Under the pieces are notes generated by a model. The model saw only the letters and a program-made list of their open reading frames with translations. It had not been told where the DNA came from and did not search any database. A stretch of DNA of 64,000 nucleotides. Source: a virus. Taxonomy: Duplodnaviria; Caudoviricetes. Positions 11-44,332 of this stretch are shown here, in pieces. Location: positions 256,001 through 320,000 of IMG/VR virus record IMGVR_UViG_3300043177_000122. One strand, written 5' to 3'. How positions within the stretch are numbered: position 1 is the first letter of the stretch; every line of letters starts with the position of its first letter. Made by a program: the position numbers and the translations under genes.

Positions 11-1732
11 GTGGGCCACCTTGTAACTGATCGATATGATTTTCAAAAACATATCGACGGTACAGATTTTAGGCAAGATGCGGATACAGTTGATTTAAAT
101 CCATCTATTACAATTGGTTCAACTGTAATTACTGATGTCCAAACTGCTATTGCTGCTTTAGCAGGTTCTATTATTGTTCCTTCAGTTCCAGATGCAACTA
201 CAGTTAGTAAGGGTGTTATTCAATTAGGTGGGGATTTATTTGGGTCCGGAACAACAGCTACTGCTCCTAAAGTAAGTGGTTTACAGGGGTTTCCAATTAG
301 CTCAACTACACCAGCTACAAACCAGGTTTTGACTTGGAACGGTGCTACATGGGCTCCGTCTGTTATCGTTAATGCTACATCTGCTGTTTTTGGAACTATT
401 AAACTATTAGGAGATTTGAATGGTGGAACAGCCTCATCTCCAGTAGTAACTGGAATTCAAACACGCCCCGTTAGTGCTGTAGCTCCCCTTACTGGACAAG
501 CACTAGTTTGGAATGGTTCTGTATGGATTCCTACTGGTATTCCAGCTACTCCCACTGGTACTGGATTTGCTACTTTAACCTCTGGTATATATGATGCTGC
601 TGCCACAGCTAATATCAGATATTTTGGTGGCAAGCTACAAACCGATGTTAACATTCAGTACAAAAATGGCGCTATAACTGGTGATTTATCTTGGACTCCA
701 ACTGGTGTGAACAAGACTATTACATTGCCAGATATCACTGACACTATTGTTACACTAACATCTACAGATACTTTAACTAATAAAACTATCAATGCAACTA
801 CCAACACTATAACTGATACGAGTGCTACTATTGGAGATATTTTAGCAGTAGTTGCTGGTACTAAATTTACCAGGCTTGCTAAGGGAGCTAATGGAACCTT
901 TCTAGGCGTTTCTGGTGGTGTTTTAGGGTATTATACACCATCTGGAAGTACTCCCACTGGTACTGGATTTGCTACAGTTACTGGTGGTGTGTTTGATGCT
1001 GCCGCTACAGCCAACATTAGATATACTGGCGGCAAGTTCCAAAGTGATGTTGCAGTACAATTTAAAAATGGCGGTGTTACTGGAGATTTATCTTGGGCGC
1101 CTACGATTTCTAATAAAACTCTAACACTACCAAATGCTAACGATACATTAGTAGCTCAAAATACAACAGAAGCGCTTACTAATAAAACTATTGTTGCGTC
1201 CTCAAATACTATCACTGATACTGGTACTGCGGTTGGTGATTTACTTATAAGTAATGGTACAAACTTTGTACGTTTTGCTAGAGGTTCAGCTTTACAAGTT
1301 TTGAGAACAAATACTGGTGGTACCGATTTAGAATGGGCTACCGTATCATTCCCAGCTTCAGAAGTGGTTATTTCTCAATCTGGAGCCGGTCAATTAAATA
1401 ACGTAGCTACTACTGATGGATCAGGTAATCCGGCCGCTATCATTAGGTTTACTGGTGATGGTGCTGCTACTGATATTCTCCTCAGTGGTTTAGTTGCTCC
1501 AAGTAATCCAAGCTCGGCCACTACAATTAGAAAAATTACTTTAGTTGCAACAAGTACTTCAAGGTTAATCTTGTCTAACGAAGATGCCAATAGCACCTCC
1601 ACTAATAGATTGCATTTTGGTGCCGCTATTTCACAATATATTGTAGGAGATGATGGATACGGAATTAATGTAATTTGGGACACAAGCACTCAAAGATGGA
1701 GACCAGTCATTCATTCCCAATCACTACCATAA
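11..1732 (+). CDS. Tail fibre-like structural protein with internal repeats (possibly 5'-truncated by the window edge)
   Basis: T/G/A-rich. Two KGVIQLGGDL/FGTIKLLGDL...VLTWNG repeats typical of phage fibre proteins, then a 134-aa tandem duplication. The frame is open upstream of the GTG at 11. Confidence 0.65.
   Translation: MGHLVTDRYDFQKHIDGTDFRQDADTVDLNPSITIGSTVITDVQTAIAALAGSIIVPSVPDATTVSKGVIQLGGDLFGSGTTATAPKVSGLQGFPISSTTPATNQVLTWNGATWAPSVIVNATSAVFGTIKLLGDLNGGTASSPVVTGIQTRPVSAVAPLTGQALVWNGSVWIPTGIPATPTGTGFATLTSGIYDAAATANIRYFGGKLQTDVNIQYKNGAITGDLSWTPTGVNKTITLPDITDTIVTLTSTDTLTNKTINATTNTITDTSATIGDILAVVAGTKFTRLAKGANGTFLGVSGGVLGYYTPSGSTPTGTGFATVTGGVFDAAATANIRYTGGKFQSDVAVQFKNGGVTGDLSWAPTISNKTLTLPNANDTLVAQNTTEALTNKTIVASSNTITDTGTAVGDLLISNGTNFVRFARGSALQVLRTNTGGTDLEWATVSFPASEVVISQSGAGQLNNVATTDGSGNPAAIIRFTGDGAATDILLSGLVAPSNPSSATTIRKITLVATSTSRLILSNEDANSTSTNRLHFGAAISQYIVGDDGYGINVIWDTSTQRWRPVIHSQSLP
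548..1350 (+). repeat. In-frame tandem duplication, 402-nt period
   Basis: ACTCCCACTGGTACTGGATTTGCTAC occurs at 548 and 950. The TPTGTGFAT...DAAATANIRY...GDLSW...TLTLP...LTNKTI block is repeated. Confidence 0.85.
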
Positions 1733-1806
1733 TATTGTTTAAGTTTCTGTTTTCCATATCAATTCTTCCACATATCATAAAGAGTTTTACTCTTGTAAGG
1801 AGTACT

Positions 1807-2259: not shown

Positions 2260-2288
2260 CTAAGATTTAGTTATATAATTGGTGAAAT

Positions 2289-5200
2289 ATGAGTAACTAT
2301 CCAAACGGTTTTGATGATGACTCAACCTTACCGGTTGTAAATGACAATCTTACAGAAATTGGTGGCGATGCCATCAATGCTTTGCGAGATGCTGTCTTTC
2401 AAATAGAGCAAGCACTAGGTCTAAATATTGCTGGAGTTGCTCCATCATTAGCCGCACGTTTAGGTGTATTTATTAATCCAGATGGTACACCAAACGCATC
2501 AGTTCTAACTAGCTTAGGATTGGTTACTCTACCAATTAGAAATGACCAAATTGTTGAAGCAGCCGGTATTCCAGAATCTAAACTACGTCTTGATTTTAGA
2601 ACTCAAGACTTGTTCAACTATATTAGAGATTTATCATTAGATATTAATGCTACACTTGGTTGGATTAATACTCAAGGCATCAAACTTGAACCACATCTTA
2701 TTGGTGCAATTTATCGTCATACGATGGATCAAATTGATGTAAGTGCTAGTACTTCTGGGTTTTTGTCAAATGTGTTCCGTACACTTAGAGATAATACCCA
2801 ATCATATACTCTCGTAAAAGATATAAATGCAGAACTTCTAGCACATCAATGGGCTGACGGATCTCCGTTTGGTGTTGAAAAGAATATTGTAACCAACAAT
2901 GGTTCTATTTACACAACAGATTTTGCTCACGTTGGTAGTGGTATTTTTATCAATCCAAGTAGATTTAATAACATACCACAAACTCTAGATAACTTACAGT
3001 TATTTGCTGAATTTATTGATAGTGCAAGTATTTTCTTGTTAGGTACTAGAATTCAGAATTTATATTCTGCAGGCATCTCTAGAGTATCAGAGTCTTCCAA
3101 TTTAACTGTAGATGGATACGGACAATTCTTAGTACCACCCACTGCTGCTAGTGCATTTTTACTGAACGTTGGAAATGCAAGCGGTCCATTTGATGATATC
3201 AATACTGGTGATGACATCGTAGTATTCAATCCATCATCTGCATTACAGGCTAACAATTATTTTGATTCTTTATTTGCGTTGGTTAAACCGGGTGATATTA
3301 TCAGGGTACATTATGGTGATGGTTATAATATTGAAGTTCCATATGTAATTAGAGAAAAGAAGTATAATCCGACTGTTGGTAATAAAAAGTATGCAGTTAG
3401 AATTGCTGGCAAGAATCAAGCTTATTCACCAAATGCTATTGCTAGAATTGATAAACCTTTAGCGAACAATAATAAGTATGGAGAATTATCTATTTCTCCA
3501 GTTAATAATCAATTCAGCGCCACACCAAGCTTGATTATTAACAACCCGCGTGGAGCGCAGGCTACTGGTGTTGGATTTGCTCCAGATCAATTTGATGAGA
3601 CGCACTATTTACTATACTTAGCATTTTACCCAACTGGTCATGCTGTTGATGGTTATGTTTTCTTGCCAGGAATTGATGTAACTGGAAATCAAGGCACTAC
3701 ACCAGGAGCGTATACTCTTGAATCAATTGTTCAGGCTACAAATAATGCCTTCCGCAAAGTAGGATACAATTACAGATTTACTGCCTTTTCTTCAGGTGGT
3801 GAATTTGGTATTTGTCTGGCTGATTCTTATAACAATAGCGCATTTTCTATCATAAGCACAGCTATTGCTCCAGATGGCTCAATTGATACATTAAGTAACA
3901 ATATTAATTTCCCGAAGAATGTTATTTCCATTGTGCCAACAGTAGGAACTGTGGCTGCTGATCCATTAGGGTTTGGACCAACTGGCTCTGGTGTAGCAAG
4001 CCCTCCATTTATGACTTCTTACGGCTCATCTGCTGCCGCGTTGAACCCAACTAAATTGTTTATTCCTCTTAGAAGAAATAACTATTATGTCAATGGTTCT
4101 GAAACAGAAAGATTAGCAAAAGAAGACTCACAAGCCTTGGATGGATATGGAGATGGTTATTGGGTGGCCACCGTACAAGATATTCAGGTACAACCTGGTA
4201 GAGTACAAACTACTTATCGTATTCCTCTTAATTTAGATACCTCTGGGTTAAAAATTGGAAAAACTATCGTTGTTCAATCTCTAGGGGCTGGCAACTTAGT
4301 GGATTTTGGGCGCTATATTATTCAGTCAGTTAATATAAATTGTGCTACTAACGTTTATACAGATATTACTGTTTATGACTCTGTCCATGCTAAAGGATTT
4401 TCACCCACATCTACTTTACAGCCGTTTTCCCAAGTTGCTGTCTATTTTGGATCTGATTCTGTTTCGTTCAGCACTGAATCTTCGACCGATTACACGGTTG
4501 TTACTCCATTCAAGAGACATTTTGAAGTATATGTAGACCAGAATGGTAAAACATTTACTCATGAACGTGGCAGATTAACTCTTGCCGGTGGTAACATAAC
4601 CGTTAATGGCACTACTTTATATGGATATTCACAGCTTAACAAACTAGATATTGTAACTATCTCTCCTAAATTAAGAGGATATCAGTTCGGCTCAGTAAAC
4701 AAAATTTCTTTGAGAATGTTTAGTTTCTCAAGCACTACTGGTGTGTTTGATGGATATCTAGCATCTTATGATGGAACTAATTTTACTCATTTTGGTCCGC
4801 GTACACAGGGTAAGAAGGGTGATGTCATTAGATTTTATGATGAGACTCATGTTGACTATATTGATGTTGTTATGGACCCAAATACAGTCATTACTGATTT
4901 CTCTGATCAAATAATAGATTTCCAACTGTTCCCAACTCTTCAATTAGATACTGAATTAATGTTAATTGGAACGTGTCAAGTTAACGATACTACACAGACA
5001 GTTAGCAAAATTGTAGATAGACGACAATTTGGAAATACTAGTGAAAAAGACCTTAGTGATTCAGTGTTTGACTACATGGCAGTGCCAGAAAAACTACTAC
5101 ACTCTAATGGAGTTATTCGTGGTTTTGATATTTTCAACGTATATGATGGCGCTGCCGGTATCATTAATTTCACAGGAGGTGTAGTTCTAGTTGATGGGAA

Positions 5201-6827
5201 AATTATTGACATCAATAATGATTCACTCTCAATACCTTTTGTTCAGGAACAGTATAATTTTAACAACTATGATGTAAACTGGGCAGTCTGTATAAATAAG
5301 AGTGGTGATTATGATGCTATTCCATTATTGGACTTTGACGCCAGCCTTGGAAATCCAAGCAACACTGCCAGAACATTTACTGCATTTGATGTAGTAAGCT
5401 CTACTTCATATGTAATACCAGCAACTACATTCTCAGATTTAATTAACAAAAGAACAGATTTAACTATTCTATACATAGTATCTTCATTTGTTTCTGGTTC
5501 TGGTACATCTGCTACCATCTCATTACAATCTGTAGATGCTAGAAAGTTCATCTATAAAAAAGATTGGGGCGAGATTGCTACATTTTGTGTTGATGCAAAT
5601 AATGGTGAGTTTAGAACATTTGATGCTTTAGAAACATGGATTAACTTTAATTCAAAATACAATAGTTTAATACATGTCAAAGGTACATTTACTGATATAC
5701 CAACTTCACTTACATACAATAATCCAGTAAGATTTGTTGGTGACGGTACAACGGTATTTAGCCCAATTAACTCTCTCTCGGTTCTAAATGTTGAGTTTAG
5801 AAATATTACATTAAATGTTAACACATTTGATTTTAATGGTGCCCCAATGGATAGATGCATCATTAATTTCAATCCAACTCCAAGTGGACATTTAGTTACA
5901 TTAAACACATTAATTACTAATACCACAATTAATTTTTCTGGTAGTGGTGGCCCAATCAATTTCTTAGCTAATACTAGACTAGAGAATGTAACGATCAATA
6001 TTACGGGCTCTAATGAAATGGTTACACTAAGTGGTTGTATAGCTAAAGACTGTACATTTAATGTAACTGGTACCAACTGTACGCTAACAATTGATTCTAA
6101 TGCTATTGTTGATGCATGTACATTTAATTTGAATGTAAGTAGTACAACTTGGAGTGTTCTAGGCACCATGACTAACAGTACTGTAAACTTCAATGCTGTT
6201 GGTACTCAGCTTCCTATTACTGCAAGCAGCTCTTCTACTACAGGATTTAATTTCTCTGGGAATAGACTTATTGTTAACTCTGCCTCCACACCACCAAGCT
6301 CTATTGTATCTGTAGTAAATGGATCTAACGGCAATATAGTTGATAACTTTTTCTTTAGATCTGGAACAACGCTTACCAATGGATATATTTTAGCACCGGC
6401 AACAGGAACGGTATCTGTTGTTGGAAACTTCTTTGATAGCACCACCTATAATGGTACTGACCTTAATTTAGTTAAGAATCTACCATTAACATGGGTTTAT
6501 AGAAGTAATTTAAATACTCCAACTATGGTAAATCTACGTAGAATTACCGGTGGTAGCACATATACTGTCGTTCCAGTTGATCATGTTTTGTCTTTTGATT
6601 TAACAAGCAGTGCTATGACAGTTAATTTACCGTCAGTTAGTTTGGGCCCACCAGGTCGTACACTAGTTATTAAAGATGCTACAGGTAACGCAGATATTAG
6701 GCCAATTACATTAGTTAGAGCTAATTCAGACGAAACTATCGAAGGTTTAGCAGCAAATTATGTGTATAATATTCCATTCGGATCTATTACATTAGTAGCA
6801 GATTCTGGTGGATGGGTTATAATATGA
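2289..6827 (+). CDS. Large virion fibre/appendage protein (1512 aa)
   Basis: N-terminal YPNGFDD...GDAINALRDAVFQIEQALG motif of fibre/whisker proteins. Beta-helix-like N/T/I-rich region near the C-terminus. Fibre-tip-type end (TVNLPS...RTLVIKDATG...ITL...ETIEG). Confidence 0.65.
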   Translation: MSNYPNGFDDDSTLPVVNDNLTEIGGDAINALRDAVFQIEQALGLNIAGVAPSLAARLGVFINPDGTPNASVLTSLGLVTLPIRNDQIVEAAGIPESKLRLDFRTQDLFNYIRDLSLDINATLGWINTQGIKLEPHLIGAIYRHTMDQIDVSASTSGFLSNVFRTLRDNTQSYTLVKDINAELLAHQWADGSPFGVEKNIVTNNGSIYTTDFAHVGSGIFINPSRFNNIPQTLDNLQLFAEFIDSASIFLLGTRIQNLYSAGISRVSESSNLTVDGYGQFLVPPTAASAFLLNVGNASGPFDDINTGDDIVVFNPSSALQANNYFDSLFALVKPGDIIRVHYGDGYNIEVPYVIREKKYNPTVGNKKYAVRIAGKNQAYSPNAIARIDKPLANNNKYGELSISPVNNQFSATPSLIINNPRGAQATGVGFAPDQFDETHYLLYLAFYPTGHAVDGYVFLPGIDVTGNQGTTPGAYTLESIVQATNNAFRKVGYNYRFTAFSSGGEFGICLADSYNNSAFSIISTAIAPDGSIDTLSNNINFPKNVISIVPTVGTVAADPLGFGPTGSGVASPPFMTSYGSSAAALNPTKLFIPLRRNNYYVNGSETERLAKEDSQALDGYGDGYWVATVQDIQVQPGRVQTTYRIPLNLDTSGLKIGKTIVVQSLGAGNLVDFGRYIIQSVNINCATNVYTDITVYDSVHAKGFSPTSTLQPFSQVAVYFGSDSVSFSTESSTDYTVVTPFKRHFEVYVDQNGKTFTHERGRLTLAGGNITVNGTTLYGYSQLNKLDIVTISPKLRGYQFGSVNKISLRMFSFSSTTGVFDGYLASYDGTNFTHFGPRTQGKKGDVIRFYDETHVDYIDVVMDPNTVITDFSDQIIDFQLFPTLQLDTELMLIGTCQVNDTTQTVSKIVDRRQFGNTSEKDLSDSVFDYMAVPEKLLHSNGVIRGFDIFNVYDGAAGIINFTGGVVLVDGKIIDINNDSLSIPFVQEQYNFNNYDVNWAVCINKSGDYDAIPLLDFDASLGNPSNTARTFTAFDVVSSTSYVIPATTFSDLINKRTDLTILYIVSSFVSGSGTSATISLQSVDARKFIYKKDWGEIATFCVDANNGEFRTFDALETWINFNSKYNSLIHVKGTFTDIPTSLTYNNPVRFVGDGTTVFSPINSLSVLNVEFRNITLNVNTFDFNGAPMDRCIINFNPTPSGHLVTLNTLITNTTINFSGSGGPINFLANTRLENVTINITGSNEMVTLSGCIAKDCTFNVTGTNCTLTIDSNAIVDACTFNLNVSSTTWSVLGTMTNSTVNFNAVGTQLPITASSSSTTGFNFSGNRLIVNSASTPPSSIVSVVNGSNGNIVDNFFFRSGTTLTNGYILAPATGTVSVVGNFFDSTTYNGTDLNLVKNLPLTWVYRSNLNTPTMVNLRRITGGSTYTVVPVDHVLSFDLTSSAMTVNLPSVSLGPPGRTLVIKDATGNADIRPITLVRANSDETIEGLAANYVYNIPFGSITLVADSGGWVII

Positions 6828-6837: not shown

Positions 6838-7932
6838 ATGAGTAGCCCTAGACTTTTCAAACAATTTTTCAGCACACCAACCTCTGTATTAGGGGCAGGG
6901 GGAATTCTTTACACAACAGTAACGTCAGCATCAAATAACGTTGTATTGCCAACTGGAACAATTAATGTTACTTCTACCTCTGGATTTCCAACTAGTGGAC
7001 AGATAGGCGTACAAGTTATCATTAATTTTTCTTATGCTTATGTGACAGTTAGTTACACTGGAATTACAGCTACTAGTTTTACGGGTTGTACAGGTGGTAC
7101 TGGTACTATGGTTACTGGTTCTCAAATTGGTGCAATTGGTTCAATTATAACTGGTACATGGACTTGTCCAGCGGGTATTAAGTATGCTATTGTTACTGGG
7201 TGTGGCGGTGGTGGAGGTGGAGGCGGTGGTGCTAGCTCATCTGGAAGAAGCATTACTTATTTTGCAGGTGGAGGCAGTGGAGGACACCCAGCACCTACGT
7301 TAACCCAAATAATTTCTGTAACACCCGGTGTTACTTATACAATTTCTGTAGGTCAGGGAGGTATCGGGGGAACTTCCAACTGTGTAGCTAATATTGTAAG
7401 CCCATCTGGTGGTGGTACAAAACCAGGAAATCCTGGTTCAGACGGATCTTCTAGTATATTCGGCTCTACTATTTTCCCTGGTGGGAAAGGTGGTAGAGAA
7501 GGTCAATTGATTTCAATCAATACTCTTACATTTCCAGTAGGGGCTGACTGTGCTAATGCGGCTTTCTCTGGTGCTACGAACCCAACTCCACAAAATATCC
7601 AAATGGCAGCAGAACGTGCACCTTTTACTCCATTCAATGCTGTACAGGGTATAGCTCATGCTGTTAACCGCGCCCCTAACCAGTATTCGTTGTCTGGCGG
7701 AGGAACTGCTGGAGGGGTATCTAACAATGTTTTGTCAACTGCTGGAAGTGGCGGACAAGGCGCACAAGGATTTGATGGATATCCATTCGCTGGCTATGGA
7801 GGTAATGGTACCTATGGTGGCGGTGGCGGTGGTGCAGGTGGTGGTGAAAACTGGGACTATAATAACACCCATGATGGTGGTCTCGGTGGCTGGGGAGGAT
7901 CCGGCTTTATTGAAGTTGCATGGATGGCATAA
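6838..7932 (+). CDS. Glycine-rich tail-fibre-associated protein
   Basis: WTCPAGIKYAIVTGCGGGGGGGG...VTPGVTYTISVGQGG...GGSGFIEVAW is the pattern of phage Gly-rich domains. Confidence 0.7.
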   Translation: MSSPRLFKQFFSTPTSVLGAGGILYTTVTSASNNVVLPTGTINVTSTSGFPTSGQIGVQVIINFSYAYVTVSYTGITATSFTGCTGGTGTMVTGSQIGAIGSIITGTWTCPAGIKYAIVTGCGGGGGGGGGASSSGRSITYFAGGGSGGHPAPTLTQIISVTPGVTYTISVGQGGIGGTSNCVANIVSPSGGGTKPGNPGSDGSSSIFGSTIFPGGKGGREGQLISINTLTFPVGADCANAAFSGATNPTPQNIQMAAERAPFTPFNAVQGIAHAVNRAPNQYSLSGGGTAGGVSNNVLSTAGSGGQGAQGFDGYPFAGYGGNGTYGGGGGGAGGGENWDYNNTHDGGLGGWGGSGFIEVAWMA

Positions 7933-8326: not shown

Positions 8327-9154
8327 ATGTCCTCTAATAATTTCTTTAGATCAGATCTCTTTGGAATATACAATATCATCCAAGCTTCGATGATTGTTTA
8401 TCCTAAAGAAATCATCATTGCAACATTGCGTGATTTCTTTTCTAAGGATAGCTATTATCACTTCTCAAAGGATCAATGGGGATTTCCTAATACAGTAGAT
8501 CACACAGATCTGCCTCCAGGAGCAGATTTACCACACGGTCCCGGTGCCCACCCGGAACTAAACCCTAATCCGATTCTACCAACTCGTCTTTTTATTGGTG
8601 AGAATTATCGTTATGACGGTATTTTTTATCCAGCAATTTTAGTTAAGAGTGGTGGCAGTCGTTATGTTCCTATTTCTATTAATCGCGATCAGGGTATGGT
8701 CAAATATGATAATATCTTATATGTTGATGGATATGGTAATGAAACAATTGTCAGAAAACCAATTGCCTTTTGTACCTCTGGTGTTTGGGAAGGGTCGATA
8801 ATTATTGATGTAATGAGTCGCAGTTTAAGAGCTAGAGATGACTTAGTAGAATTGATTGGAATGTGCTTTACAGAAGTACATTTTGATACTCTTCATGAAA
8901 TAGGAATTGTAGTCAAACCAATTTCAATTGGTGCCCCATCTGAAACAGATGACCGAGTTGATAAGTTATTTAGGCAAAGTCTAACGTTAGATATAAGAAC
9001 TGAATGGGCAAGAGAAATACCGATTTCAAATACAATCGATGCCATTCTCTTTACAGCTAGTTTTGGTGATTTGTCAGCGCCAAACAGTCCATTAGCCGCT
9101 AACTTGACGGTGAATACAGAAGTAAACACCTCAGATATGCTACTAAAACTGTAA
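8327..9154 (+). CDS. Tail terminator / neck-completion-like protein
   Basis: Lies immediately before the sheath. IIIDVMSRSLRARDDLVELI...FRQSLTLDIRTEW fits the alpha/beta pattern of tail completion proteins. Confidence 0.55.
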   Translation: MSSNNFFRSDLFGIYNIIQASMIVYPKEIIIATLRDFFSKDSYYHFSKDQWGFPNTVDHTDLPPGADLPHGPGAHPELNPNPILPTRLFIGENYRYDGIFYPAILVKSGGSRYVPISINRDQGMVKYDNILYVDGYGNETIVRKPIAFCTSGVWEGSIIIDVMSRSLRARDDLVELIGMCFTEVHFDTLHEIGIVVKPISIGAPSETDDRVDKLFRQSLTLDIRTEWAREIPISNTIDAILFTASFGDLSAPNSPLAANLTVNTEVNTSDMLLKL

Positions 9155-12831: not shown

Positions 12832-12860
12832 TCCTTTCTAATATCTCAAAACTCTTCATA

Positions 12861-12905
12861 AAGTACCCTGCTTGATATATAATCATAGCAGGGTATTTAT
12901 TTTGT
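12861..12905 (+). terminator. Hairpin (TACCCTGC...GCAGGGTA) plus T-rich tail, enclosing a promoter-like motif
   Basis: 8-bp perfect arms at 12864-12871 and 12888-12895, followed by TTTATTTTG. Confidence 0.45.
12871..12883 (+). promoter_or_regulatory. CTTGATATATAAT motif, copy 2 (upstream of tail chaperone)
   Basis: Exact 13-mer, intergenic. Confidence 0.6.
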
Positions 12906-12915
12906 GGAGTTAATT

Positions 12916-13599: not shown

Positions 13600-13601
13600 T
13601 G
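13571..13601 (+). other. Putative programmed -1 ribosomal frameshift site
   Basis: AGGAGG at 13571-13576, then TTA AAA AAA TAA. The -1 frame (AAA AAA ATA ATG) is open into the next ORF. Confidence 0.65.
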
Positions 13602-13958: not shown

Positions 13959-13963
13959 ATTAA

Positions 13964-16357: not shown

Positions 16358-16360
16358 TAT

Positions 16361-22404: not shown

Positions 22405-22412
22405 AGGATAAT

Positions 22413-28567: not shown

Positions 28568-28614
28568 TTGGGCGATTTGCTTAATAATTTCACATCATAG
28601 AGTGGAGTATAGAT

Positions 28615-36100: not shown

Positions 36101-39100
36101 AGCTGCCATCAAAAATATTGGACAGATTATTACGCACGTAGAACCAGAAGTTATTGAATCTGCTTTTGAGATTTGGTCACTAGGTAGTAGTTTATTGTTT
36201 CCAATTGATGTAGAAACAACTGGAGAGTTTCAGTTACTGCCAGCTCACTATGGTAATGGAGTATTAATTGATCAGCCAGATCAAACCATTACAATACCAG
36301 TTAATTCTAATCTAAGATTAGAAGAGGGAACTTTTGAAACTTGGGTACTCCCTCAGTGGAATGGTATTGATAATGATGCTGAATTGACTTTTATCATTAC
36401 AAGAGATGGTTATGCTATTGATCCATATAGAGTGCTTATTGGAGGATCAGAGTATCACCCTACTATAGATTTAAAAAACCAATTTACCCTGGATAAAACG
36501 TCAAATGTCACTGGCCGCCCTAACAAAAATAAAGACGGTGTTTTCATTTATTATGATAAAGATATTTCGGGTAGCTTCTATCGTTGGTACGTGGCAGTTG
36601 TCGATGGATATGTGGCTCCTAACTATCATACTTACCAACTCCAAATTCTCTCCACAGGTAAATTCTATGATGTTAAATCTATTAGTCCAATTAAGCCGGC
36701 TAATATGAGCACTTTTACTGGTACTAATAAAGTTAACTTTACTCTTCGACCAAGAGTAGATGGGTATGGTATTGACGAAGGTATCACATTTATTTCTGAT
36801 GTAGAGCATTATATTTTGGACTTTGGAAAAACTAAAGATTCCAGCCGATTGTCTATTTTCAAAGATGTAAGCGGTTACATAAACTTCAGAGTTTATGATA
36901 GAGAACATAAAATGTGGAACATCAGTGCAGACGTTTCTTCTTGGAAAGTTAATGTTCCACACATGGTTGCTGCATCTTGGAAATTAAACACTAGAAACAA
37001 TCGCGATGAAATGCATCTATTCATTGATGGCTTAGAAGTTACTAATATTATCAAATATGGTCAAAAACTACAACCATATTTGCATGAGAAATTTAGAACT
37101 GTTAATCCGGAAGAGATAGTAGGGTTAGCCGCTCGTGATATTGTGGGCTCTAATGATCTAGTGACTACAAGCGGATCTTCATTAGTTACATCTAGTATAA
37201 ACTTTAGCCAGTATGATATTTTTGTAGGTGATACAATTTTCATTAATGAAAATGGATTTTCACCAGTAGGATATACCATTGTAGACATTGATGGTCAAGA
37301 ATTAACATTAAGTTCAGTTCTACCAATTACCATGACTGGTGGCAGATTCTCTATTAATCAAACTGACTACTCTGTAACTTCCGATATTAATATCGCTCCA
37401 AATATCGCAGTTACAACTATTCATACTTTTGTGGAAGGTACAGGTTTAGTAACCAATTCAGGATCAAATGTAGTATCCTCTTCTAGTCATAATTTTACTA
37501 CATTAAATGTTAAGCCAGGATATCTATTAAGAATAGATAATTCATCTTTTGCTCTTACTTACAGTATTGTACAAGTTAGCGGAAATACATTAACTATAAC
37601 TGATCCTGCACCACTTAGTTTGTCAGGGGCTACCTTCTATATTTACTCTAACACTGAAAATGAAATTTCTGGTGTTAGGGCGCTTAATCCATCTTATAGT
37701 ATTAATCAAGATAGTAATTTTAATAACATTCTAACAGTCTCGAATAATGTATTTGCTAATGATTTAATTCTAATAAGAACACTAGGTCTTAACTATAAAG
37801 ATGTTAAGAGGCAATATTATGTCTGGAGTTCTCAGTTGGAGAATATTTTACAGACTCAACTACCGCCTCCAATTAATTTAGATGAAGCTAATATCACCAG
37901 AATAATTACGCCCACTACAGCCATTGGTCCGACTAACTCAACTTTAATGAGTGGAATGTTTGTTTCTAATTATCTTCCTACCGCAGCACCCTCTAATGCT
38001 CAAATTGGAAGAACCATTCAAGCTACCATTAGTGGAACTAATGTTGATTTTTCAACACCAGTTCAAGTAACTATTAATGGTGTTTCCGGAATAAATACTA
38101 TTAGCGAAACTATCACATTCACCAACTACGGTACTCTTGATTTTACTAACACATTTGTTTCTTTAAATTATATGTGGGTAAACGTTAAACCAATTAATAC
38201 AAGTAAAAATGCATTAGCAGTAGAGCTGCGAGAGAAATACCCTATTACACACAGCGAATCAAGCGGGCTTGTTCCAGTAGTTAGATATAGTTATCATATT
38301 AATGGTGGATATACTCTTTCTGGTAATGGTATTGATAATGTAGTGACGGATCCAAATAATACTTTCAGCGCCTTGGATGTTGGAAATACTTTGATAATTC
38401 ATACCCCGCCAACAGTAGCAGGGTTTTATCAAATTACAGGACTATCATCAGATAGACATTCCTTAACTATTGCTCCAACTGCCGCTTCGTTCCCTGTTCC
38501 ACTACCAAGTTTTGCTAATGCAAAATATCAAGTATTAAATACTACACAATATCGTAGTGGATTACAAAATGGATTCTTTACTTTAGAAGCAAGTGTTCTG
38601 CCAAGTCAACAATATTTCTTAGATCAAGGATTTTATGAGCTTGAGTATTCTACATATGCTAGAATAAAATTCGATTCACTCAATAGTAAAATGTACTTTG
38701 GTAGTGATTTCCAGGGTAATAATCAAGCTAATGCAATCATTGACCATGTCACTATCTATTCTATTATGTTAACTGATACTAGAATAGGTGAGGTTGTTGC
38801 ACTCAATAAGAGATCTGTAACTAAAGATTATAATACACTTAAAACAACAAAGCCTGATGCAAATACATTAGTGTTAGTTGATTTTGATAGTACGCCATTT
38901 TCTAATGAAGCTAAATTCTATGCTAGCACAAATAATGACCATAAACATTTCCAGTCTGACTTTACTGTTAGTGATAATTTTAGTGAAAGTATGGTAATAC
39001 TAGATGAACCAATTGTGATGTCTAATGATGGAATTTTAGATACTAGAAATCAAGGAACTATTGAATTTTGGATGAGTCCACTTTTTGATACTGCTAATGA

Positions 39101-40298
39101 TCCTAACTTGAGATATTATTTCGATGGGTTTGGCGCAGTTACAGAAACAGTTACAAGTATCAATAATGTGTCTGTTAAAATTTCCTCGCCAGCCTCTGAA
39201 ATACTTAGTGTTACATTAGCTGCGGGAGATCCAAAGATCGATTATTTTGTTGGTGGTAAATTAGAAGTTGATACTCAACACGCTTTACAAGAAGATGCTA
39301 TAGTTATGGGCACTTCTGTGGTTGTAGTTTCTCAGCCAATACTACAAGTAATTTCTGTTAAGGCTATTGGTGATTTTACTGAAAAAGATTACTATGCTGG
39401 TGGAACAGTAGGAGCTGATCGTAAAACCATTTTCCTAGGCACAGGTCTACCACAACCAAACATGCAAGTTTTGGTTACTTATCAAACAACAAATAACAAT
39501 AATGTTACAATTAACACCCAGGTTATTAGATTAAACAGAAGATTGCCTGCTCAAAATTCTAAAGTTGTTGTAACTTACCTTCCAACTGGACTTCAGGGCG
39601 ACCGTATCTCAATTTATAAGGATCTCTATGGTTACATTAATTTCCAGATCAGAGCATCCGGGTTTGACTATGTAGTTCGAGGCCCAACTCGTTGGGCTAG
39701 AAATACTTGGCATCGTGTTAAGGCTAGCTACAAAATCAACGGCGGAGTTGGAAACGATGAAATGAGACTGTTCCTTGATGGGTATCAGTATACTGATGTT
39801 CTGTATGGTCAAGGTCTTCAATTTGGTAAGTTTCCTATGGTTTATGGTTCTGTATCTGTTGGTGATGGATATGGTTTGATTGGAAGTATTCCATTCAAAG
39901 ACCCGATTAACATTTTGAATATTGGTGCTGATTACAAAAAGAACAACTCAATATTCACTTTACTAGATAACTTTAGAGTAAGCAACATATCCAGGCCAAT
40001 TTATGCGCCATACGGTGAGCCTTTAGATGCTAACTTCAGCAGCAATTTAAGTACCGTCTTCCCTGTTACTAAAGACCTATATACTACTTTGTTGTTAGAT
40101 TTTGATAGGTTGAATGCCTTAAATACGAATTTTGCTACATTGATCAATAGAGCAACTGGAGCATTTGATTTTACTGTAAATATCTTCGATTCTTTTGGTA
40201 TAGTAAGTAGTAGTGCTAAAGTTAAAGAAGTACTTGAAAACCTTATCAATATCCTGAAGCCAGCCAACTCCAGGGTGTTTATCAAGTATATTACCTGA
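33147..40298 (+). CDS. Very large baseplate wedge/fibre-attachment protein with LamG-like domains (2383 aa)
   Basis: SLLKNFG...DRERYREALQAALSSFVQGPTVAAIK is gpI/gp7-like. There are two concanavalin/LamG signatures (GTFETWV...HMVAASW...MHLFIDG; GTIEFWM...WHRVKASY...MRLFLDG). The C-terminus is KEVLENLINILKPANSRVFIKY. Confidence 0.7.
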   Translation: MTILRIVNVVINSSTSIDVSFTETLTGNLLPTNASIISQTENIPNSKVLEVSITGNVFSITCQPLTPYAAYYLQFQSTESHPFTSLNGDVKLSEDGVSNRMIITGPLPNDNPVNDYLQSFYQNNIYKASDSTTVINKYIQSIAINFSRALYDIRQLANENYLSFTVVDELHTKGETPFERLYEEAVYEVFRVGFGATAAPVPNTFVFDSFPSFPVTLQRQSAVEIVQPSSNDDNGTFNINNLIFNLSNKPVTKVNKITFTLTTSNPVFDYDISRLGYQLLDSTFDQDYASSYLLLKNNQVKINESILDDPNFSLDKIFHVTVEYEYKGLGIQIDPDSVSTYTTLQSVREVLPPIINIFSLAHAPITDATNNIPVTGGVTFIDPNSGTGAPHPAFLTEIPFSLSALPSSPGIYAIDYETGTVYVYGENSNNDGTGPSPPLATYYYKFTFTPETDYVYDSDLVEIVALPLGNLVGQAGTIAFNYEQVLVPGVDYEANIHKEAINERVGNRLTALNSLKTINSPITNVFQIFNETSGEIYLLDRWNEDTVYFKFNKPPRILQRTGENTTFETVTNELLGINTTSINTSSLRIFTIFLMNNTIINSSQDGIGASFNSSVTFTNGNVFVTEMWYDQEFDAASNINGLQNVGEYTIDYKNGIVYVAVSSTQSNDIGTVTYKKNSIVPNFPHVVSVDDIYYRVSILNPKNKQFSYVSFEDGSIVPDGLEASDEAFLNGSISAPYQIYQNQIGAFVDSTFVPGVTNAVKFVRSVYEFNDLSNSSNPINFGFVSTANNFNITVRTINKQSFESVQFDGSNYFVVLNENIPYLSPGIEYTFSVVRTVDSQSLWNGSGIVVPGNPLKLVLSGIGSPQVGDVVSVTYSFTIMPFQRVIVDYNKGDLFSDYTYVADEIVVSYEYGDNVIDFRKNLTLPTGADYYVSYKAGALRDSLLKNFGTLVNVPTLSNFDLSLDRERYREALQAALSSFVQGPTVAAIKNIGQIITHVEPEVIESAFEIWSLGSSLLFPIDVETTGEFQLLPAHYGNGVLIDQPDQTITIPVNSNLRLEEGTFETWVLPQWNGIDNDAELTFIITRDGYAIDPYRVLIGGSEYHPTIDLKNQFTLDKTSNVTGRPNKNKDGVFIYYDKDISGSFYRWYVAVVDGYVAPNYHTYQLQILSTGKFYDVKSISPIKPANMSTFTGTNKVNFTLRPRVDGYGIDEGITFISDVEHYILDFGKTKDSSRLSIFKDVSGYINFRVYDREHKMWNISADVSSWKVNVPHMVAASWKLNTRNNRDEMHLFIDGLEVTNIIKYGQKLQPYLHEKFRTVNPEEIVGLAARDIVGSNDLVTTSGSSLVTSSINFSQYDIFVGDTIFINENGFSPVGYTIVDIDGQELTLSSVLPITMTGGRFSINQTDYSVTSDINIAPNIAVTTIHTFVEGTGLVTNSGSNVVSSSSHNFTTLNVKPGYLLRIDNSSFALTYSIVQVSGNTLTITDPAPLSLSGATFYIYSNTENEISGVRALNPSYSINQDSNFNNILTVSNNVFANDLILIRTLGLNYKDVKRQYYVWSSQLENILQTQLPPPINLDEANITRIITPTTAIGPTNSTLMSGMFVSNYLPTAAPSNAQIGRTIQATISGTNVDFSTPVQVTINGVSGINTISETITFTNYGTLDFTNTFVSLNYMWVNVKPINTSKNALAVELREKYPITHSESSGLVPVVRYSYHINGGYTLSGNGIDNVVTDPNNTFSALDVGNTLIIHTPPTVAGFYQITGLSSDRHSLTIAPTAASFPVPLPSFANAKYQVLNTTQYRSGLQNGFFTLEASVLPSQQYFLDQGFYELEYSTYARIKFDSLNSKMYFGSDFQGNNQANAIIDHVTIYSIMLTDTRIGEVVALNKRSVTKDYNTLKTTKPDANTLVLVDFDSTPFSNEAKFYASTNNDHKHFQSDFTVSDNFSESMVILDEPIVMSNDGILDTRNQGTIEFWMSPLFDTANDPNLRYYFDGFGAVTETVTSINNVSVKISSPASEILSVTLAAGDPKIDYFVGGKLEVDTQHALQEDAIVMGTSVVVVSQPILQVISVKAIGDFTEKDYYAGGTVGADRKTIFLGTGLPQPNMQVLVTYQTTNNNNVTINTQVIRLNRRLPAQNSKVVVTYLPTGLQGDRISIYKDLYGYINFQIRASGFDYVVRGPTRWARNTWHRVKASYKINGGVGNDEMRLFLDGYQYTDVLYGQGLQFGKFPMVYGSVSVGDGYGLIGSIPFKDPINILNIGADYKKNNSIFTLLDNFRVSNISRPIYAPYGEPLDANFSSNLSTVFPVTKDLYTTLLLDFDRLNALNTNFATLINRATGAFDFTVNIFDSFGIVSSSAKVKEVLENLINILKPANSRVFIKYIT

Positions 40299-40306
40299 GA
40301 GATATA

Positions 40307-43300
40307 ATGACAAAGCGAGCCCCCGTATCTATACAAAGACCAATCTGGTATGATGCCCAGCAGGTAGATGAAACAGACCTATCTACTGAGCAAATGGCTA
40401 ATGATACCATTGATGCTGCCATCATTAATAACCACATTGGTGGCGGAGTTCTCCCAGAAAATTTAGTCGCTAAAGTTTTATTTGATTCTAGTAAGGCAAT
40501 CGGATTTCTAGATGGTCTTGCTATCGAAACTCAAGATCAGCCATCTGATAATAATTTAGGAAATCAGCTTTCTATTTCACTAACGGATTCGAAAGCTTCA
40601 GGGCATCGTCGTGTTAAAGTTGGTATTATTGGATTAGATTTCCAGTCCAATTTACAATTTGAGACATTTTACTTTAAGAATAACGAAACTCAGACAAGCA
40701 GAAAACACTTCACAAGAATTCTAGTTTTACTATTCAACGATTTTATTGGAGACCCAGAAATCTCTTTTAATCTAGGTGGAAAGATAGTTATCTCAGAAGC
40801 TCTACCAATGACAGTTTCTAGAGATGTTGTTATGATTGCCCAAGATCAGCAACCAAATTTATTTTTCAGAGATTTCTTTTTAGACTCTTCTGTTAACAAT
40901 CTCTCTATCGAAGCTATGTTGCAAAATGCTTTGCCACTTTACAACATTGATAGTTTGAATATTTTATCTGCTCCAGTAGATTTGCTACCAATTTTAAGTG
41001 GTGACGTTACTACGCAGATTGGTCAAAAGTTTCAGGCAACAACTAATAGCGTCCAAAAAATTTCTCTATTACTTGCAGTAAGAAACCAAGTTGCAGGACA
41101 ACAAGATAATTTAGTTTGGAACGGAGATATCGTTGTTAGTATCTATCCATTACAAACAAGTATTGATTGTCCAACCGACTTTTTACCAAATCTTCCGATA
41201 GATTTCTCTCCATCCAATATCCCAATTGCCCAGATTAGTTACAACTATAATAGTTTAAAAGATGCTGGAATACTTTTAGATTCTGTTCCACAACCGGTTG
41301 ACTTTGTGTTTAGTAATAGTCCAATTGCAGGTGGAAATGTTATGGTTCCAGGACAATATTATGCTTTAGCTATTAAACGTTCTGGTTCAGCTAATCAATG
41401 CGATATCTTAATTGCAACTGGTCAAAATCTAATTGACAATTCTAGAATTACTACTTTTACTGGAGCTTTATGGGTAGATATTCCAGACCAGGATTTATGG
41501 TTTGTGGTTTGGACAGACGCCGCCAAGATTTCTGACGGCCAAGCTTATGATCAGGGTCATGGTGTTACTATTCCAAAAACCACTACAGATCCAACTTCGC
41601 TGGCAACCATTGATAATTTATTCGGTGCTAAACAATTTGTAGGTAATGATGTTTTCCGTGCCGTACTTCAAGCAGTAACAGAAGTTTCTAGTCCAGTACC
41701 GGATCAAAGAACGGGTAATCCAGTAGACTCTCGTCAACAATATGTTCCTCAAGTTACATTGATGAATTCAATTGATATTGTTAATTTAGAGAAAACCTCT
41801 GAACCTCTCATTCTAGGGGCAATATCTGACAAAAATATCAAATTTTTTGATACCAGTCAGCAAAATATTAATTCCACATTGTACAGCGCTACAATGGTAA
41901 GAGATGAGCTTGTTATTAGAATTGTTGATGACCCAACAGATACTGTTAGATTTGATCTAGCAGTTAGTGGGTTAGCAACCAGTTTACTCAATGGTGATTT
42001 AGTCGGGGCAATAATTAGACCAGATGCCGCCGCTCCATTCACAGCATATCGTATTGCTGATGCAAGACTATGTTCTATGATTTTAGGAGATGTAGATGGT
42101 AATGGAATTATTGATGAGAATGATCTTTCACTTCTAAATAAATTTATTGGTTACAATATGAATGTTGGCTTGCCACTTCATACAAATATCGTAACAGACG
42201 GATATTCTACTGTTGTTCAAAATGGATATCAAACACTAACACAACCATTTGCTAATTTATTTGGTATTAGTTTCCAACTACTAAATCCTAATGATGGGTA
42301 TGTGGTAGCTTCAGCTTCCGATGGAGTTTTAGTTGCTAATCCAAATGATCCTTCTTTGGCTCAATTTACTAGTGCTACCATTCAATTCAACACAATCGTA
42401 GGTTTAAGCACTTACAAACTAGTTATCTTAGATAGCGGTTCAAATGAAGCAGATTGGGGATCTTGGAACATTGTCGCTCTAGATTCAGGTCTAGACGTTT
42501 TGACTATTCAAAAAATTTACTTGACTGGCGATGTATTTGCTCAAATGATGAGAGCAGATATTAATGGAGATTTTGCTATTACTACAGCAGATGGATACCT
42601 ATTAAATAGCTACATTGATAGATTGCCAACTACCGCAATACCTCATGCTACTTATCCTGCACCAAGCACTAATCCATATACTAAAATTGGTACTCGTTTC
42701 AATGTTATTAGATTAAGAGTTGAGGGCCTTGTAGATAGATCGGATGATTACACTGCGGATCCAGCTAACCGCGCTGATACAGTACATCCATTACAAGACA
42801 TATTCTTAGGAAATGGATATCTAACAAGTCATGATTTCTACAACTCTCCAATCCAATTATCATTTACTAAACAGTTAGTTTGGGATCCTTCTTTAGTTAT
42901 AACTACTGCACATCCAAAACTAGTTCCAAGCGTATTCACTTCTGAATCAGGAGTTGTACATAATATTTGTGAAATTGAAGGTATACAGTGTAATGTTTAT
43001 CCAGTACCGCAAACATTCGATCCTGGTAAGGTAGATTTCTTTGTTCCTAATAATCTTATCATTGGAGATGGTGAATTACAGAGACCTGATGGTTACTTCT
43101 ATAAAGTAGATTTTGAAGTTGGTACTGTCGTTCTAGAAATCCCAGATGGTTTATTTGGTTCTGAAAGAACTATTGATATTATGAACGATTTCATTGCAGA
43201 TTATACTGGTAACGGAGCTACTCGTCTTGGATTTCCATCCATGAGATTCGCTGACTGTTCATATGTTCAAAGGGACGCGCTTTCCAAAGATCAAATTAGA

Positions 43301-44332
43301 TTCTCGGTTTCTGTACAGTCTTTCTCTCCAAATACAAATGGCTTGAGTCCAGATGGATATACTGGGGCCATTGTAGATGGTAAGATGGGTGTAAGCGTAG
43401 ACTTTGAAACCGGTTTACTTACTTTGAACTTCACTAATTTGTACCAAGATGCTACATTGAGAACTTTGAGCACGAAGATTCAGGTTCACGTCTTTTTAAA
43501 GAAGGGTGGATTCAATAACGAGCCGCTCTTTGTTAATGCTACTAAGGTACAAAATATGCTGAGCTTAATTAGCGTATTTAGCGGCGCTAATGATGGCGGC
43601 CCATCAGCTTTAGTTGATCTGGGTAATGATGTTACTGGTATTCTACCAATTCTAAATGGTGGTACTGGACTAAATGATGTAGGATCATTTGGTACAGTTC
43701 TAACGAGTAATGGAAGCGGTTTAAGTTATCAATTTGTTAACACGCTACTTAATGTTATACCATTTTCTACTGGTATTCCAGACGCTGATAAAGTGCCCAA
43801 ACTAGATGGTTATGGATTCTTAGACCCAAGCTTTATGTACAAACAACCAATGTACATTCCAATTGTGTCTGGATCTTATTCAAATGATGGATATACTCCT
43901 GCTGCTATTGGTGCTTGCATCTTTAGATTTGATAGTTTCATTTTAGAAGGCCTTGACAGTATTAAATTAGAATGTATAGTAGAAAGCACAAATACAGCTA
44001 ACACCGCAGCTATTAGACTCTACAATGTAAATACTAATAGCTATGTACTACTGAACGGTATTAGCCCTGTATTGACGACTAATAATACTCAAGCTACTTA
44101 TCTAGTTTCTCAGGATCTAAAGTCGCTTCTATCAGCCGGAGCTACGAATTGGATTTATGAAGTTCATTTGAATTCTGATCCTGGTGGCAGCTTAGATACT
44201 TCTATTTGCAAAATGGCGAGATTGGTAATGACATACAATAACTTGACACTAAACGGTTCGGCCCAGATTGCTCCTCCATTAGCTCACAGTTATAACTTTG
44301 TACCATTCCTACCAAGCCCAACTCCAGTATAA
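40307..44332 (+). CDS. Virion protein with split dockerin-like EF-hand pair (1341 aa)
   Basis: N-terminal WYDAQQVDETDLSTEQ resembles fibre-attachment trimer motifs. GDVDGNGIIDENDLSLL and ADINGDFAITTADGYLL. Confidence 0.6.
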   Translation: MTKRAPVSIQRPIWYDAQQVDETDLSTEQMANDTIDAAIINNHIGGGVLPENLVAKVLFDSSKAIGFLDGLAIETQDQPSDNNLGNQLSISLTDSKASGHRRVKVGIIGLDFQSNLQFETFYFKNNETQTSRKHFTRILVLLFNDFIGDPEISFNLGGKIVISEALPMTVSRDVVMIAQDQQPNLFFRDFFLDSSVNNLSIEAMLQNALPLYNIDSLNILSAPVDLLPILSGDVTTQIGQKFQATTNSVQKISLLLAVRNQVAGQQDNLVWNGDIVVSIYPLQTSIDCPTDFLPNLPIDFSPSNIPIAQISYNYNSLKDAGILLDSVPQPVDFVFSNSPIAGGNVMVPGQYYALAIKRSGSANQCDILIATGQNLIDNSRITTFTGALWVDIPDQDLWFVVWTDAAKISDGQAYDQGHGVTIPKTTTDPTSLATIDNLFGAKQFVGNDVFRAVLQAVTEVSSPVPDQRTGNPVDSRQQYVPQVTLMNSIDIVNLEKTSEPLILGAISDKNIKFFDTSQQNINSTLYSATMVRDELVIRIVDDPTDTVRFDLAVSGLATSLLNGDLVGAIIRPDAAAPFTAYRIADARLCSMILGDVDGNGIIDENDLSLLNKFIGYNMNVGLPLHTNIVTDGYSTVVQNGYQTLTQPFANLFGISFQLLNPNDGYVVASASDGVLVANPNDPSLAQFTSATIQFNTIVGLSTYKLVILDSGSNEADWGSWNIVALDSGLDVLTIQKIYLTGDVFAQMMRADINGDFAITTADGYLLNSYIDRLPTTAIPHATYPAPSTNPYTKIGTRFNVIRLRVEGLVDRSDDYTADPANRADTVHPLQDIFLGNGYLTSHDFYNSPIQLSFTKQLVWDPSLVITTAHPKLVPSVFTSESGVVHNICEIEGIQCNVYPVPQTFDPGKVDFFVPNNLIIGDGELQRPDGYFYKVDFEVGTVVLEIPDGLFGSERTIDIMNDFIADYTGNGATRLGFPSMRFADCSYVQRDALSKDQIRFSVSVQSFSPNTNGLSPDGYTGAIVDGKMGVSVDFETGLLTLNFTNLYQDATLRTLSTKIQVHVFLKKGGFNNEPLFVNATKVQNMLSLISVFSGANDGGPSALVDLGNDVTGILPILNGGTGLNDVGSFGTVLTSNGSGLSYQFVNTLLNVIPFSTGIPDADKVPKLDGYGFLDPSFMYKQPMYIPIVSGSYSNDGYTPAAIGACIFRFDSFILEGLDSIKLECIVESTNTANTAAIRLYNVNTNSYVLLNGISPVLTTNNTQATYLVSQDLKSLLSAGATNWIYEVHLNSDPGGSLDTSICKMARLVMTYNNLTLNGSAQIAPPLAHSYNFVPFLPSPTPV

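Follow-up and report, generated by a model that had tools for sequence, protein, structure and literature searches.

Here we describe a short motif, Asp-Gly-Tyr (DGY), that is heavily over-represented in the outer tail proteins of a huge phage, and we read it as what looks like a short recognition tag and not a by-product of composition, ancestry or fold. The window that we analysed is a stretch of 64,000 nucleotides of the IMG/VR virus record IMGVR_UViG_3300043177_000122, covering bases 256001-320000 of one 358,993-bp virus contig of 38% GC; the runs containing this stretch are of freshwater metagenome DNA, with no RNA run listed among them. The explanation that we favour, with slightly less than even confidence and from sequence patterns, is that a phage factor reads DGY as a sequon for tyrosine glycosylation, its likeliest reader being a glycosyltransferase of the GT4 family encoded next to the tail genes. 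A DGY tag on the tails of huge phages appears to be undescribed: a full-text literature search yielded no paper on a DGY motif in phages, and nothing relevant for Asp-Gly-Tyr.

The structural set consisted of the 20 translated open reading frames (ORFs) at 11-44332 and the comparison set of the 23 ORFs at 44.4-64 kb. A first-pass annotation, made by manual count, had reported about 27 DGY in nine structural ORFs and about 28% of some 97 Asp-Gly (DG) dipeptides followed by Tyr. Translation reproduced the counts of each ORF exactly (1, 6, 1, 1, 1, 2, 3, 5 and 7), giving 27 DGY, all in nine ORFs, against 98 DG in the 14,649 amino acids (aa) of the structural set, about 12-fold over chance, and yielded no DGY in the 23 ORFs of the comparison set. 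The shuffling that the same annotation had proposed gave, over 2000 per-protein shuffles, 2.2 expected DGY and a maximum of 9 (z = 16.8; Poisson P ~1e-20), the first-order Markov expectation was 5.5, and the next tripeptide of comparable count had z < 6 in the same shuffles; an excess of KMY and MYK in these shuffles was dismissed as chance, their contexts being unrelated. The residue following DG was Tyr 27 times and the runner-up, Ser, 12 times, the residue preceding GY was Asp 27 times against 5 for the runner-up, and the residue between D and Y was Gly 27 times against 4. A general bias toward DG, for which the annotation had asked to control, was not found: DGX with X other than Y occurred 71 times against about 68 expected and xGY with x other than D 38 times against about 39, so that DGY constitutes an extra population and reflects neither a DG nor a GY bias. 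All 27 matches to GAYGGNTAY fell in frame 0 of plus-strand ORFs, with 0 on the minus strand, and the wobble base of the Gly codon was A, T, G or C, which places the signal at the protein level. For these same reasons a DNA-level motif was rejected, and the footprint of mutagenesis by a diversity-generating retroelement was rejected because the Gly codons are not limited to GGY.

The genes of the tail module, with the nucleotide (nt) position of each DGY and ORFs named after their first position, are the following.

11-1732, plus strand: fibre-like protein with a DUF5907 repeat; 1 DGY (nt 1652) in 4 DG; orthologues, 5/11.
2289-6827, plus strand: core virion protein of 1512 aa with no recognised fold; 6 DGY (nt 3111, 3318, 3648, 4140, 4152, 4749) in 13 DG.
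6838-7932, plus strand: glycine-rich protein (Gly_rich_2); 1 DGY (nt 7774) in 3 DG.
8327-9154, plus strand: 275-aa protein; 1 DGY (nt 8726), kept in 12 of 14 orthologues.
9294-12119, plus strand: tail sheath, whose only DGY (nt 10548, residue 419) lies in the middle insertion.
12148-24530, plus strand: DGY-free inner block of tube, two chaperone-like ORFs, tape measure, ORF 16361, 1691-aa hub and spike; 0 DGY in 21 DG.
24555-26750, plus strand: baseplate protein of 731 aa; 2 DGY (nt 25899, 26460) in 9 DG.
26750-29046, plus strand: two DGY-free ORFs of 605 aa and 143 aa; 0 DG in the window.
29056-33150, plus strand: baseplate J-like protein of 1364 aa; 3 DGY (nt 30769, 31714, 31840); Pfam Baseplate_J at residues 68-282.
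33147-40298, plus strand: fibre or wedge protein of 2383 aa; 5 DGY (nt 36405, 36603, 36759, 39777, 39864) in 16 DG.
40307-44332, plus strand: fibre protein of 1341 aa; 7 DGY (nt 42197, 42293, 42590, 43088, 43352, 43805, 43886) in 15 DG.

Placing these counts on the map separates the outer from the inner proteins of the tail. Within the window the outer proteins have 27 DGY in 76 DG and the inner proteins 0 in 22 (Fisher P = 3e-4), and translation confirmed what the annotation had reported, namely that tube, chaperones, tape measure, hub and spike have no DGY, even though the hub has 8 DG and the spike 7. When orthologues were grouped from the complete tail modules of 13 relatives, the DGY-positive families (ORF 11, 2289, 6838, 8327, sheath, 24555, baseplate J, 33147 and 40307) contained 297 DGY in 915 DG and the DGY-free families (ORF 1675, 7920, tube, the two chaperone-like ORFs, tape measure, 16361, hub, spike, 26750 and 28615) 0 in 249; the seven families of the block 12148-24530 made up 0/231 of these, the tube alone 0/25. 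A wider set of 57-62 relatives gave 0/182 for the hub, 2/262 for the spike and 3/63 for ORF 26750, against 110/408 for ORF 24555, 114/505 for baseplate J (62 orthologues), 329/813 for ORF 33147 and 158/476 for ORF 40307. Orthologues of the 143-aa ORF, putatively gp25-like as judged from its position, had 0 DGY in 5 DG. The 605-aa baseplate-region protein (26750-28567) has 0 DG despite 6% Asp and 6% Gly, and 13 of its orthologues hold 10 DG in 7415 aa.

The partition was also seen within single proteins. The sheath was identified from weak Pfam matches to sheath C-terminal domains, below the cutoff, and from tblastn matches to the sheaths of Eggerthella phage LE2-3 and Bacillus phage G. Among 73 sheaths the middle part (residues 100-600) has 125 DGY in 292 DG, the N-terminal part 4/141 and the C-terminal core, where the weak Pfam matches fall, 0/83. 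The terminal parts of contractile sheaths form the inner layer and insertions face outward, and by analogy the DGY-bearing middle insertion would face outward here as well. Similarly, in the baseplate J alignment every column with DGY lies past the conserved N-terminal J core.

In the genome as a whole no tripeptide is more over-represented than DGY (74 against 15.7 expected); PPP comes second, with 57 against 10 expected. Outside the window DGY clusters at three places.

Genome 229-256 kb: further structural genes with DGY.
Genome 340-359 kb: fibre-like genes with DGY, including one 982-aa protein with 10 DGY in 12 DG.
Genome 52 and 69 kb: two Kelch-repeat proteins with DGY, the second with 5 in 5 DG.

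The major capsid protein (genome 230225-231238; phrog_2522, E = 5e-80) has 1 DG and 0 DGY, so the tag marks the tail side of the particle and not virion proteins generally. The first-pass annotation had proposed a sequon on outward-facing virion proteins. Of this proposal the protein-level signal of three residues stood, confined to peripheral parts of tail, neck, baseplate and fibres, and the covalent modification is something that we still infer; "virion proteins" was too broad, given the capsid protein and the fact that the protein richest in DGY, a Kelch propeller, is encoded far away from the structural module. Comparing 83-residue segments around all 74 genome sites, all against all, yielded only two real repeat families, together about 15 sites, one being the Kelch blade hDGYIYhFGG and the other a small hairpin module, PPTDGYVLTW..G.W.P (the "DGYVLTW" hairpin). 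The spread of one repeated domain through the virion proteins was rejected, as these two families cover about 15 of the 74 sites and the remainder are unrelated; the motif occurs in folds as unrelated as sheath, baseplate J, Kelch and fibres. For the DGY proteins hardly any names came from Pfam or PHROGs.

Examination of the sites pointed to the identity of the three residues as what matters. The tripeptides DGF, DGW, NGY, EGY, DAY and DSY were at or below expectation, which indicates that Asp, Gly and the hydroxyl of Tyr all count. Around 1318 distinct sites of the clade no flanking residue was preferred more than about two-fold, save for a rare Trp at -6 (4% of sites, five-fold), and judged from these alignments the information resides in the three residues and not in their flanks. 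Where D-G was kept and Tyr lost, the replacements were V, T, I, S or L, with Phe making up 3.8%, against 39.5% at the other Tyr columns of the same proteins (binomial P ~1e-62); because Phe is so rare among the replacements, the Tyr is not kept as an aromatic packing residue. The substitution pattern thus indicates that the Tyr of DGY occupies an ordinary strand-start position that selection has repeatedly converted to Tyr where D-G precedes it.

A few sites are old (baseplate J residue 572, sheath 419, ORF 8327 residue 134, ORF 2289 residues 275 and 622), and some are conserved in >80% of orthologues; most others are not old. ORF 2289, which has orthologues in 26 of 26 relatives and carries the tandem DGYGDGYW at nt 4140/4152, keeps its sites 275, 454, 618 and 622 in 15-23 of 27 sequences and has many lineage-specific sites too. 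In five families 154 alignment columns contain DGY, 88 of them in one sequence only, and DGY singletons per expected occurrence reached 1.45 against 0.12-0.27 for 18 comparator tripeptides. Gains and losses were counted by Fitch parsimony on FastTree trees, which takes relatedness into account; DGY had 346 such events against 19-140 for 15 comparators, or 5.7 per expected occurrence against 0.2-1.2, an excess of 5-20 times over comparable tripeptides. As far as such sequence comparisons go, selection keeps creating DGY on outer tail proteins.

Structural models placed the motif consistently. The Kelch protein (genome ORF 69016-70266), which matches Pfam Kelch families above cutoff, gave an AlphaFold2 model of high confidence (predicted local distance difference test, pLDDT, 91.4; predicted template modelling score, pTM, 0.91) in which beta strands predominate and a single helix lies at the C-terminus. 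At residues 99 and 144 of this model D-G forms the two-residue turn between strands and Tyr opens the second strand, and at residue 198 the entire DGY lies within a three-residue turn between two strands. Among 120 Kelch orthologues of the clade 523 of 570 DG are DGY, while designed consensus Kelch proteins (SAKe, PDB) have N/D/G-G-H/L at the same spot. An AlphaFold2 model of ORF 2289 residues 230-870 (pLDDT 67) has five of the six sites either among the opening residues of a strand or in a loop or turn beside one, and the sixth in a segment with pLDDT <50; a Foldseek search of PDB with this model returned generic beta-barrel pieces only. In the models, then, DGY sits at tight beta-hairpin turns and loop-to-strand junctions of outer tail parts and of the Kelch propeller, and the turns that bear it are probably solvent-exposed. 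Five kb upstream of the Kelch gene lie genes for a polysaccharide pyruvyl transferase and a second GT4 (genome 62679-64934; L073:11679-13934), and a UvrD-like helicase with an intein is encoded at genome 66509-68998 (L073:15509-17998), near EF-Ts (54753-55655), a PTH2 peptidyl-tRNA hydrolase (70321-70812) and a LAGLIDADG protein.

The enrichment characterises a whole clade. Searching with baseplate J recovered 62 IMG/VR loci of 43-87% identity, on contigs of up to 480 kb and 26-48% GC, and in nearly all of them DGY makes up 12-51% of DG in the 24-kb neighbourhood, against about 1.3 DGY expected per locus; the exceptions, near background, are a few loci that are short or deep (L048, L053, L066). 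Profile scans of IMG/VR with the baseplate J, GT4 and sheath alignments recovered the same clade only (39-96% identity) and no tag-free sister clade. In the control structural blocks DGY accounts for 4 of 53 DG in Bacillus phage G, 5 of 172 in Eggerthella phage LE2-3, 10 of 69 in T4 and 0 of 62 in phiKZ, an average of 5%, and the pooled 19/356 differs from the 27/98 of the window (P = 6e-9). DGY enrichment is thus lineage-specific and independent of base composition and host. In the relative G005 a 1211-aa fibre protein (L067:8765-12397, minus strand) has 19 DGY in 25 DG; it includes tandem repeats, about 95 aa long and with three DGY apiece, of which one comes right after the classic fibre motif "...DAATRNYVD".

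Directly downstream of the tail module the annotation had pointed out a glycosyltransferase island, which we found to be conserved. It includes the following genes.

45125-46270, plus strand: GT4 glycosyltransferase, clade-specific; Pfam Glycos_transf_1 at 31.5 bits against a cutoff of 26.4.
46267-46980, plus strand: GT2 glycosyltransferase (Pfam); in 7 of 10 complete relatives and 40 of 48 loci.
48090-48941: Fpg/Nei-type DNA glycosylase, among the glycosyltransferase genes; in 22 of 48 related loci.
49940-50782, plus strand: second GT2 glycosyltransferase (Pfam); in 41 of 48 loci.
51048-52019, plus strand: dTDP-glucose 4,6-dehydratase-like (RmlB-like) protein; NCBIfam TIGR01181 at 345.6 bits against a cutoff of 365; in 10 of 10 complete relatives.

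Both glutamates of the GT4 EX7E motif, E272 and E280 (a spacing of eight residues), are kept in all 12 orthologues compared, of 39-95% identity. Of 26 records 21 encode GT4, among them all those that are at least 90% complete; no match came from the other five, all of them fragments, two of which (G008, G014) end about 6 kb past baseplate J, before the GT4 site. The order fibre, GT4, GT2, (Nei), membrane-anchored ORF, GT2, RmlB-like, tubulin is kept in 40-48 of 48 loci, and in these 48 loci GT4 stands at a boundary, with 567 DGY in 1415 DG (40%) in the genes upstream and 14 in 533 (2.6%) in the non-structural genes downstream. A search of 1.8 billion representatives recovered single-domain GT4 homologues down to about 30% identity, and the four deep homologues (32-35% identity) with enough context all follow giant fibre-like proteins in which 34 of 122 DG are DGY, so that GT4 tracks DGY-rich fibre genes in deep relatives as well. 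The genes past GT4 in these four loci vary, comprising up to six GT2s, or an RgpF-like protein, a methyltransferase, a 2-oxoglutarate oxygenase and a nucleotidyltransferase, or none. A constant GT4 with other glycan genes that vary is what would be expected of an initiating transferase followed by lineage-specific extension. The nearest multi-domain relatives of GT4 (P0154, P0162 and about 70 others) are giant bacterial-type proteins of 1000-5000 aa with several GT4/GT2 domains and tetratricopeptide repeats, and these have no DGY excess (13/412). In total the genome encodes at least four glycosyltransferases, the RmlB-like enzyme and the pyruvyl transferase.

Other features were seen in and around the island. 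The GT4 homologue P0145 (36% identity over its N-terminal 276 residues) contains an intein, itself bearing a LAGLIDADG endonuclease, in keeping with a conserved gene. A 330-aa protein (48951-49943; 41 of 48 loci) starts with a membrane anchor, followed by a coiled coil and a Pro-rich linker, and ends in a beta-rich domain; a GH25 lysozyme (54355-55221) is encoded downstream of it, and the protein may belong to the lysis system. A TubZ/PhuZ-like tubulin (52059-53420; Pfam Tubulin and TubZ-like_C) follows directly after the glycan island, a position kept in 42 of 48 relatives.

Taken together, the lineage specificity, the independence of host GC, the split between outer and inner proteins, the need for Asp and the Tyr hydroxyl and the constant independent gains argue for a DGY reader encoded by the clade itself, and glycosylation of Tyr by GT4 would be the simplest concrete form of such a reader. 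Under this explanation the tag on exposed beta-hairpin turns would be read by a phage-encoded factor common to the clade; the GT4 encoded after the last fibre gene would act in the cytoplasm on proteins already folded and attach the first sugar to the Tyr hydroxyl; and its variable neighbours, GT2s and the RmlB-like enzyme here, methyltransferases and RgpF-like proteins in relatives, would extend this sugar into a lineage-specific glycan coat of the tail. That a clade of huge freshwater and soil phages carries tail glycans on Tyr at D-G-Y, read on folded cytoplasmic beta-hairpins by a new kind of GT4, is a fuller statement that we put forward only tentatively.

Several observations weigh against glycosylation by GT4. 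All links between GT4 and the tag are of synteny and co-inheritance in one clade where both features are universal. The annotation had suggested testing their co-occurrence, and DGY and GT4 were indeed found together in every clade member holding the region, which for that very reason makes the test non-discriminating and the association inseparable from shared ancestry; the constancy of GT4 beside tagged proteins could come from ancestry alone. GT4 is without a close characterised relative (best PDB match E = 2e-3), no known family of Tyr-directed transferases was found, and GT8, the glycogenin family, was not found in the genome. Because the island also contains an Fpg/Nei-type glycosylase, it may serve DNA modification or repair as well, and its sugars may end up on DNA or on the host envelope rather than on the tail. 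The major capsid protein and the tail tube, which are the targets in mycobacteriophages, have no DGY, and the Kelch protein is not known as a virion component. The inner proteins lie at or somewhat under the 2.6% background, a modest depletion (P ~0.001-0.008, without phylogenetic correction for relatedness). Finally, the T4 structural block (75-125 kb) shows a mild excess, with 10 DGY against 2.8 expected, in gp7, gp8, gp12, gp18 and gp27, and to our knowledge T4 does not glycosylate its virion proteins, so part of the effect may be a general turn preference.

This last point leads to the possibility that DGY is a structural turn cap needing no reader, an Asp-Tyr side-chain hydrogen bond over the Gly turn stiffening exposed hairpins against proteases or harsh water chemistry. 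The T4 excess, the position at tight hairpins, the retention of the best-kept sites and the need for Asp, Gly and the Tyr hydroxyl, which fits a bond inside the motif, would all agree with it. A general benefit should, however, show in all beta-rich virion proteins, whereas the controls average 5% of DG, with none in phiKZ, and hub and spike are nearly free of DGY despite normal DG numbers; consensus Kelch proteins have N/D-G-H/L at the position, and lost sites go to V, T, I or S without sign of cost. We regard a turn cap as unlikely. It seems similarly improbable to us that DGY is an unmodified ligand or adhesion motif, in which hairpin tips, through their exposed Asp carboxylate and Tyr ring, would bind polysaccharide (capsule or extracellular polysaccharide) or metal ions weakly and multivalently. 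Such binding would suit the outer-surface location, the many sites per protein and their high turnover, as well as the finding that a Tyr hydroxyl is needed and that Asn does not stand in for Asp; sugar binding is common among Kelch propellers, and in this one DGY is found on the blade hairpins at residues 99, 144 and 198. Yet a site of three residues on unrelated folds is unlikely to make a defined pocket, a common ligand is hard to name for hosts that differ as widely as the GC range of the clade implies, the enrichment is absent from the other phage groups tested, and binding gives no reason for the inner proteins falling below background.

A different modification of the Tyr (phosphorylation, sulfation, nucleotidylation, ADP-ribosylation or oxidative cross-linking) would be equally in keeping with the motif statistics. 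The genome has no protein kinase above cutoff (sulfotransferase, Fic and tyrosinase families were not searched for), and no such enzyme lies beside the tail genes, while GT4 is always there, which makes us consider this quite unlikely. Docking, in which DGY hairpins are recognised by a decoration or cement protein or by an assembly chaperone, could account for the restriction to outer proteins and for the few strongly kept sites in ORF 8327, sheath and baseplate J; but docking sites should be few and fixed, and the hundreds of independent gains and losses, the up to 19 sites per protein and the failure to find a candidate partner make it very improbable. An artefact, whether of composition, of codon usage, of a DNA-level motif or of miscalled ORFs, we hold to be practically out of the question, since the shuffle and Markov expectations are exceeded many-fold, the sites are all in frame with a free Gly wobble base, the enrichment holds over 26-48% GC, and five whole relatives have 76-101 in-frame-type nucleotide matches on the tail-gene strand against 19-48 for the reversed pattern.

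If an enzyme does read DGY, it would represent a new and very simple protein-tagging code, in which three residues at a hairpin turn suffice and which could serve as a transferable engineering handle; if what is attached is a glycan, no sequon directed at Tyr, and no glycosylation code spanning the proteome of a bacteriophage, would precede it. Huge phages would then, like giant viruses, dress their particles with self-made glycans, and this would affect how hosts are recognised, how well particles survive in water and soil and how they evade grazers, proteases or host receptors. Even without any modification, the partition between outer and inner proteins offers a guide, from sequence alone, to the outward-facing parts of uncharacterised virion proteins in a very poorly annotated clade.

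Comparison with known systems places these results between several precedents. Mycobacteriophage virions are reportedly glycosylated by phage-encoded glycosyltransferases, as Freeman et al. are said to have described in 2023. The likeness lies in the GT4, GT2, GT2 and RmlB-like genes beside structural genes and in the presumed target, the phage's own virion surface, assembled in the cytoplasm. In mycobacteriophages, however, the targets are capsid and tail-tube subunits at Ser/Thr-rich C-termini, with no tripeptide sequon, whereas here capsid and tube are untagged, D-G-Y stands at hairpin turns of outer tail proteins and the modification is a predicted one. Giant viruses bear glycosylated fibrils made by virus-encoded pathways and resemble this phage in being large viruses with many glycosyltransferases and sugar-nucleotide enzymes of their own; they differ in their eukaryotic hosts, and we know of no short sequon for their fibrils. 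EarP, a cytoplasmic GT-B enzyme, rhamnosylates an Arg at the beta-hairpin tip of EF-P with a dTDP-6-deoxyhexose donor. The action proposed here is likewise that of a cytoplasmic GT-B enzyme on a residue at a beta-hairpin tip of a folded protein, although EarP has one substrate, one site, an Arg acceptor and another glycosyltransferase family.

For Tyr as the acceptor the precedent is the bacterial S-layer, in which O-glycosylation takes the form of beta-Glc-Tyr and beta-Gal-Tyr with rhamnose-containing cores (PMC2943079). There, as would be the case here, Tyr is a stable O-glycosidic anchor on a self-assembling surface protein, and the cores hold a 6-deoxyhexose; an RmlB-like enzyme is among those that the phage encodes. 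The glycans of S-layers are assembled on lipid carriers and transferred by an O-oligosaccharyltransferase beyond the membrane, and they occupy two to four sites, with no DGY context reported; phage tails, unlike S-layers, fold in the cytoplasm, and given this assembly a lipid-carrier en bloc route is unlikely for them.

Among established sequons, Asn-X-Ser/Thr, including that of the cytoplasmic HMW1C/NGT enzymes, and the D-(S/T)-(A/I/L/V/M/T) of O-glycosylation in Bacteroidota have the same general form, that is, three residues including the acceptor, scant flanking information and free gain and loss, on surfaces that are exposed in their case and probably so here. Each is read by one transferase, and a single reader is what we propose here, with a putative link between enzyme and motif. 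DGY would differ from them in offering Tyr as its candidate acceptor, in the motif itself and in having the phage tail as its set of targets.

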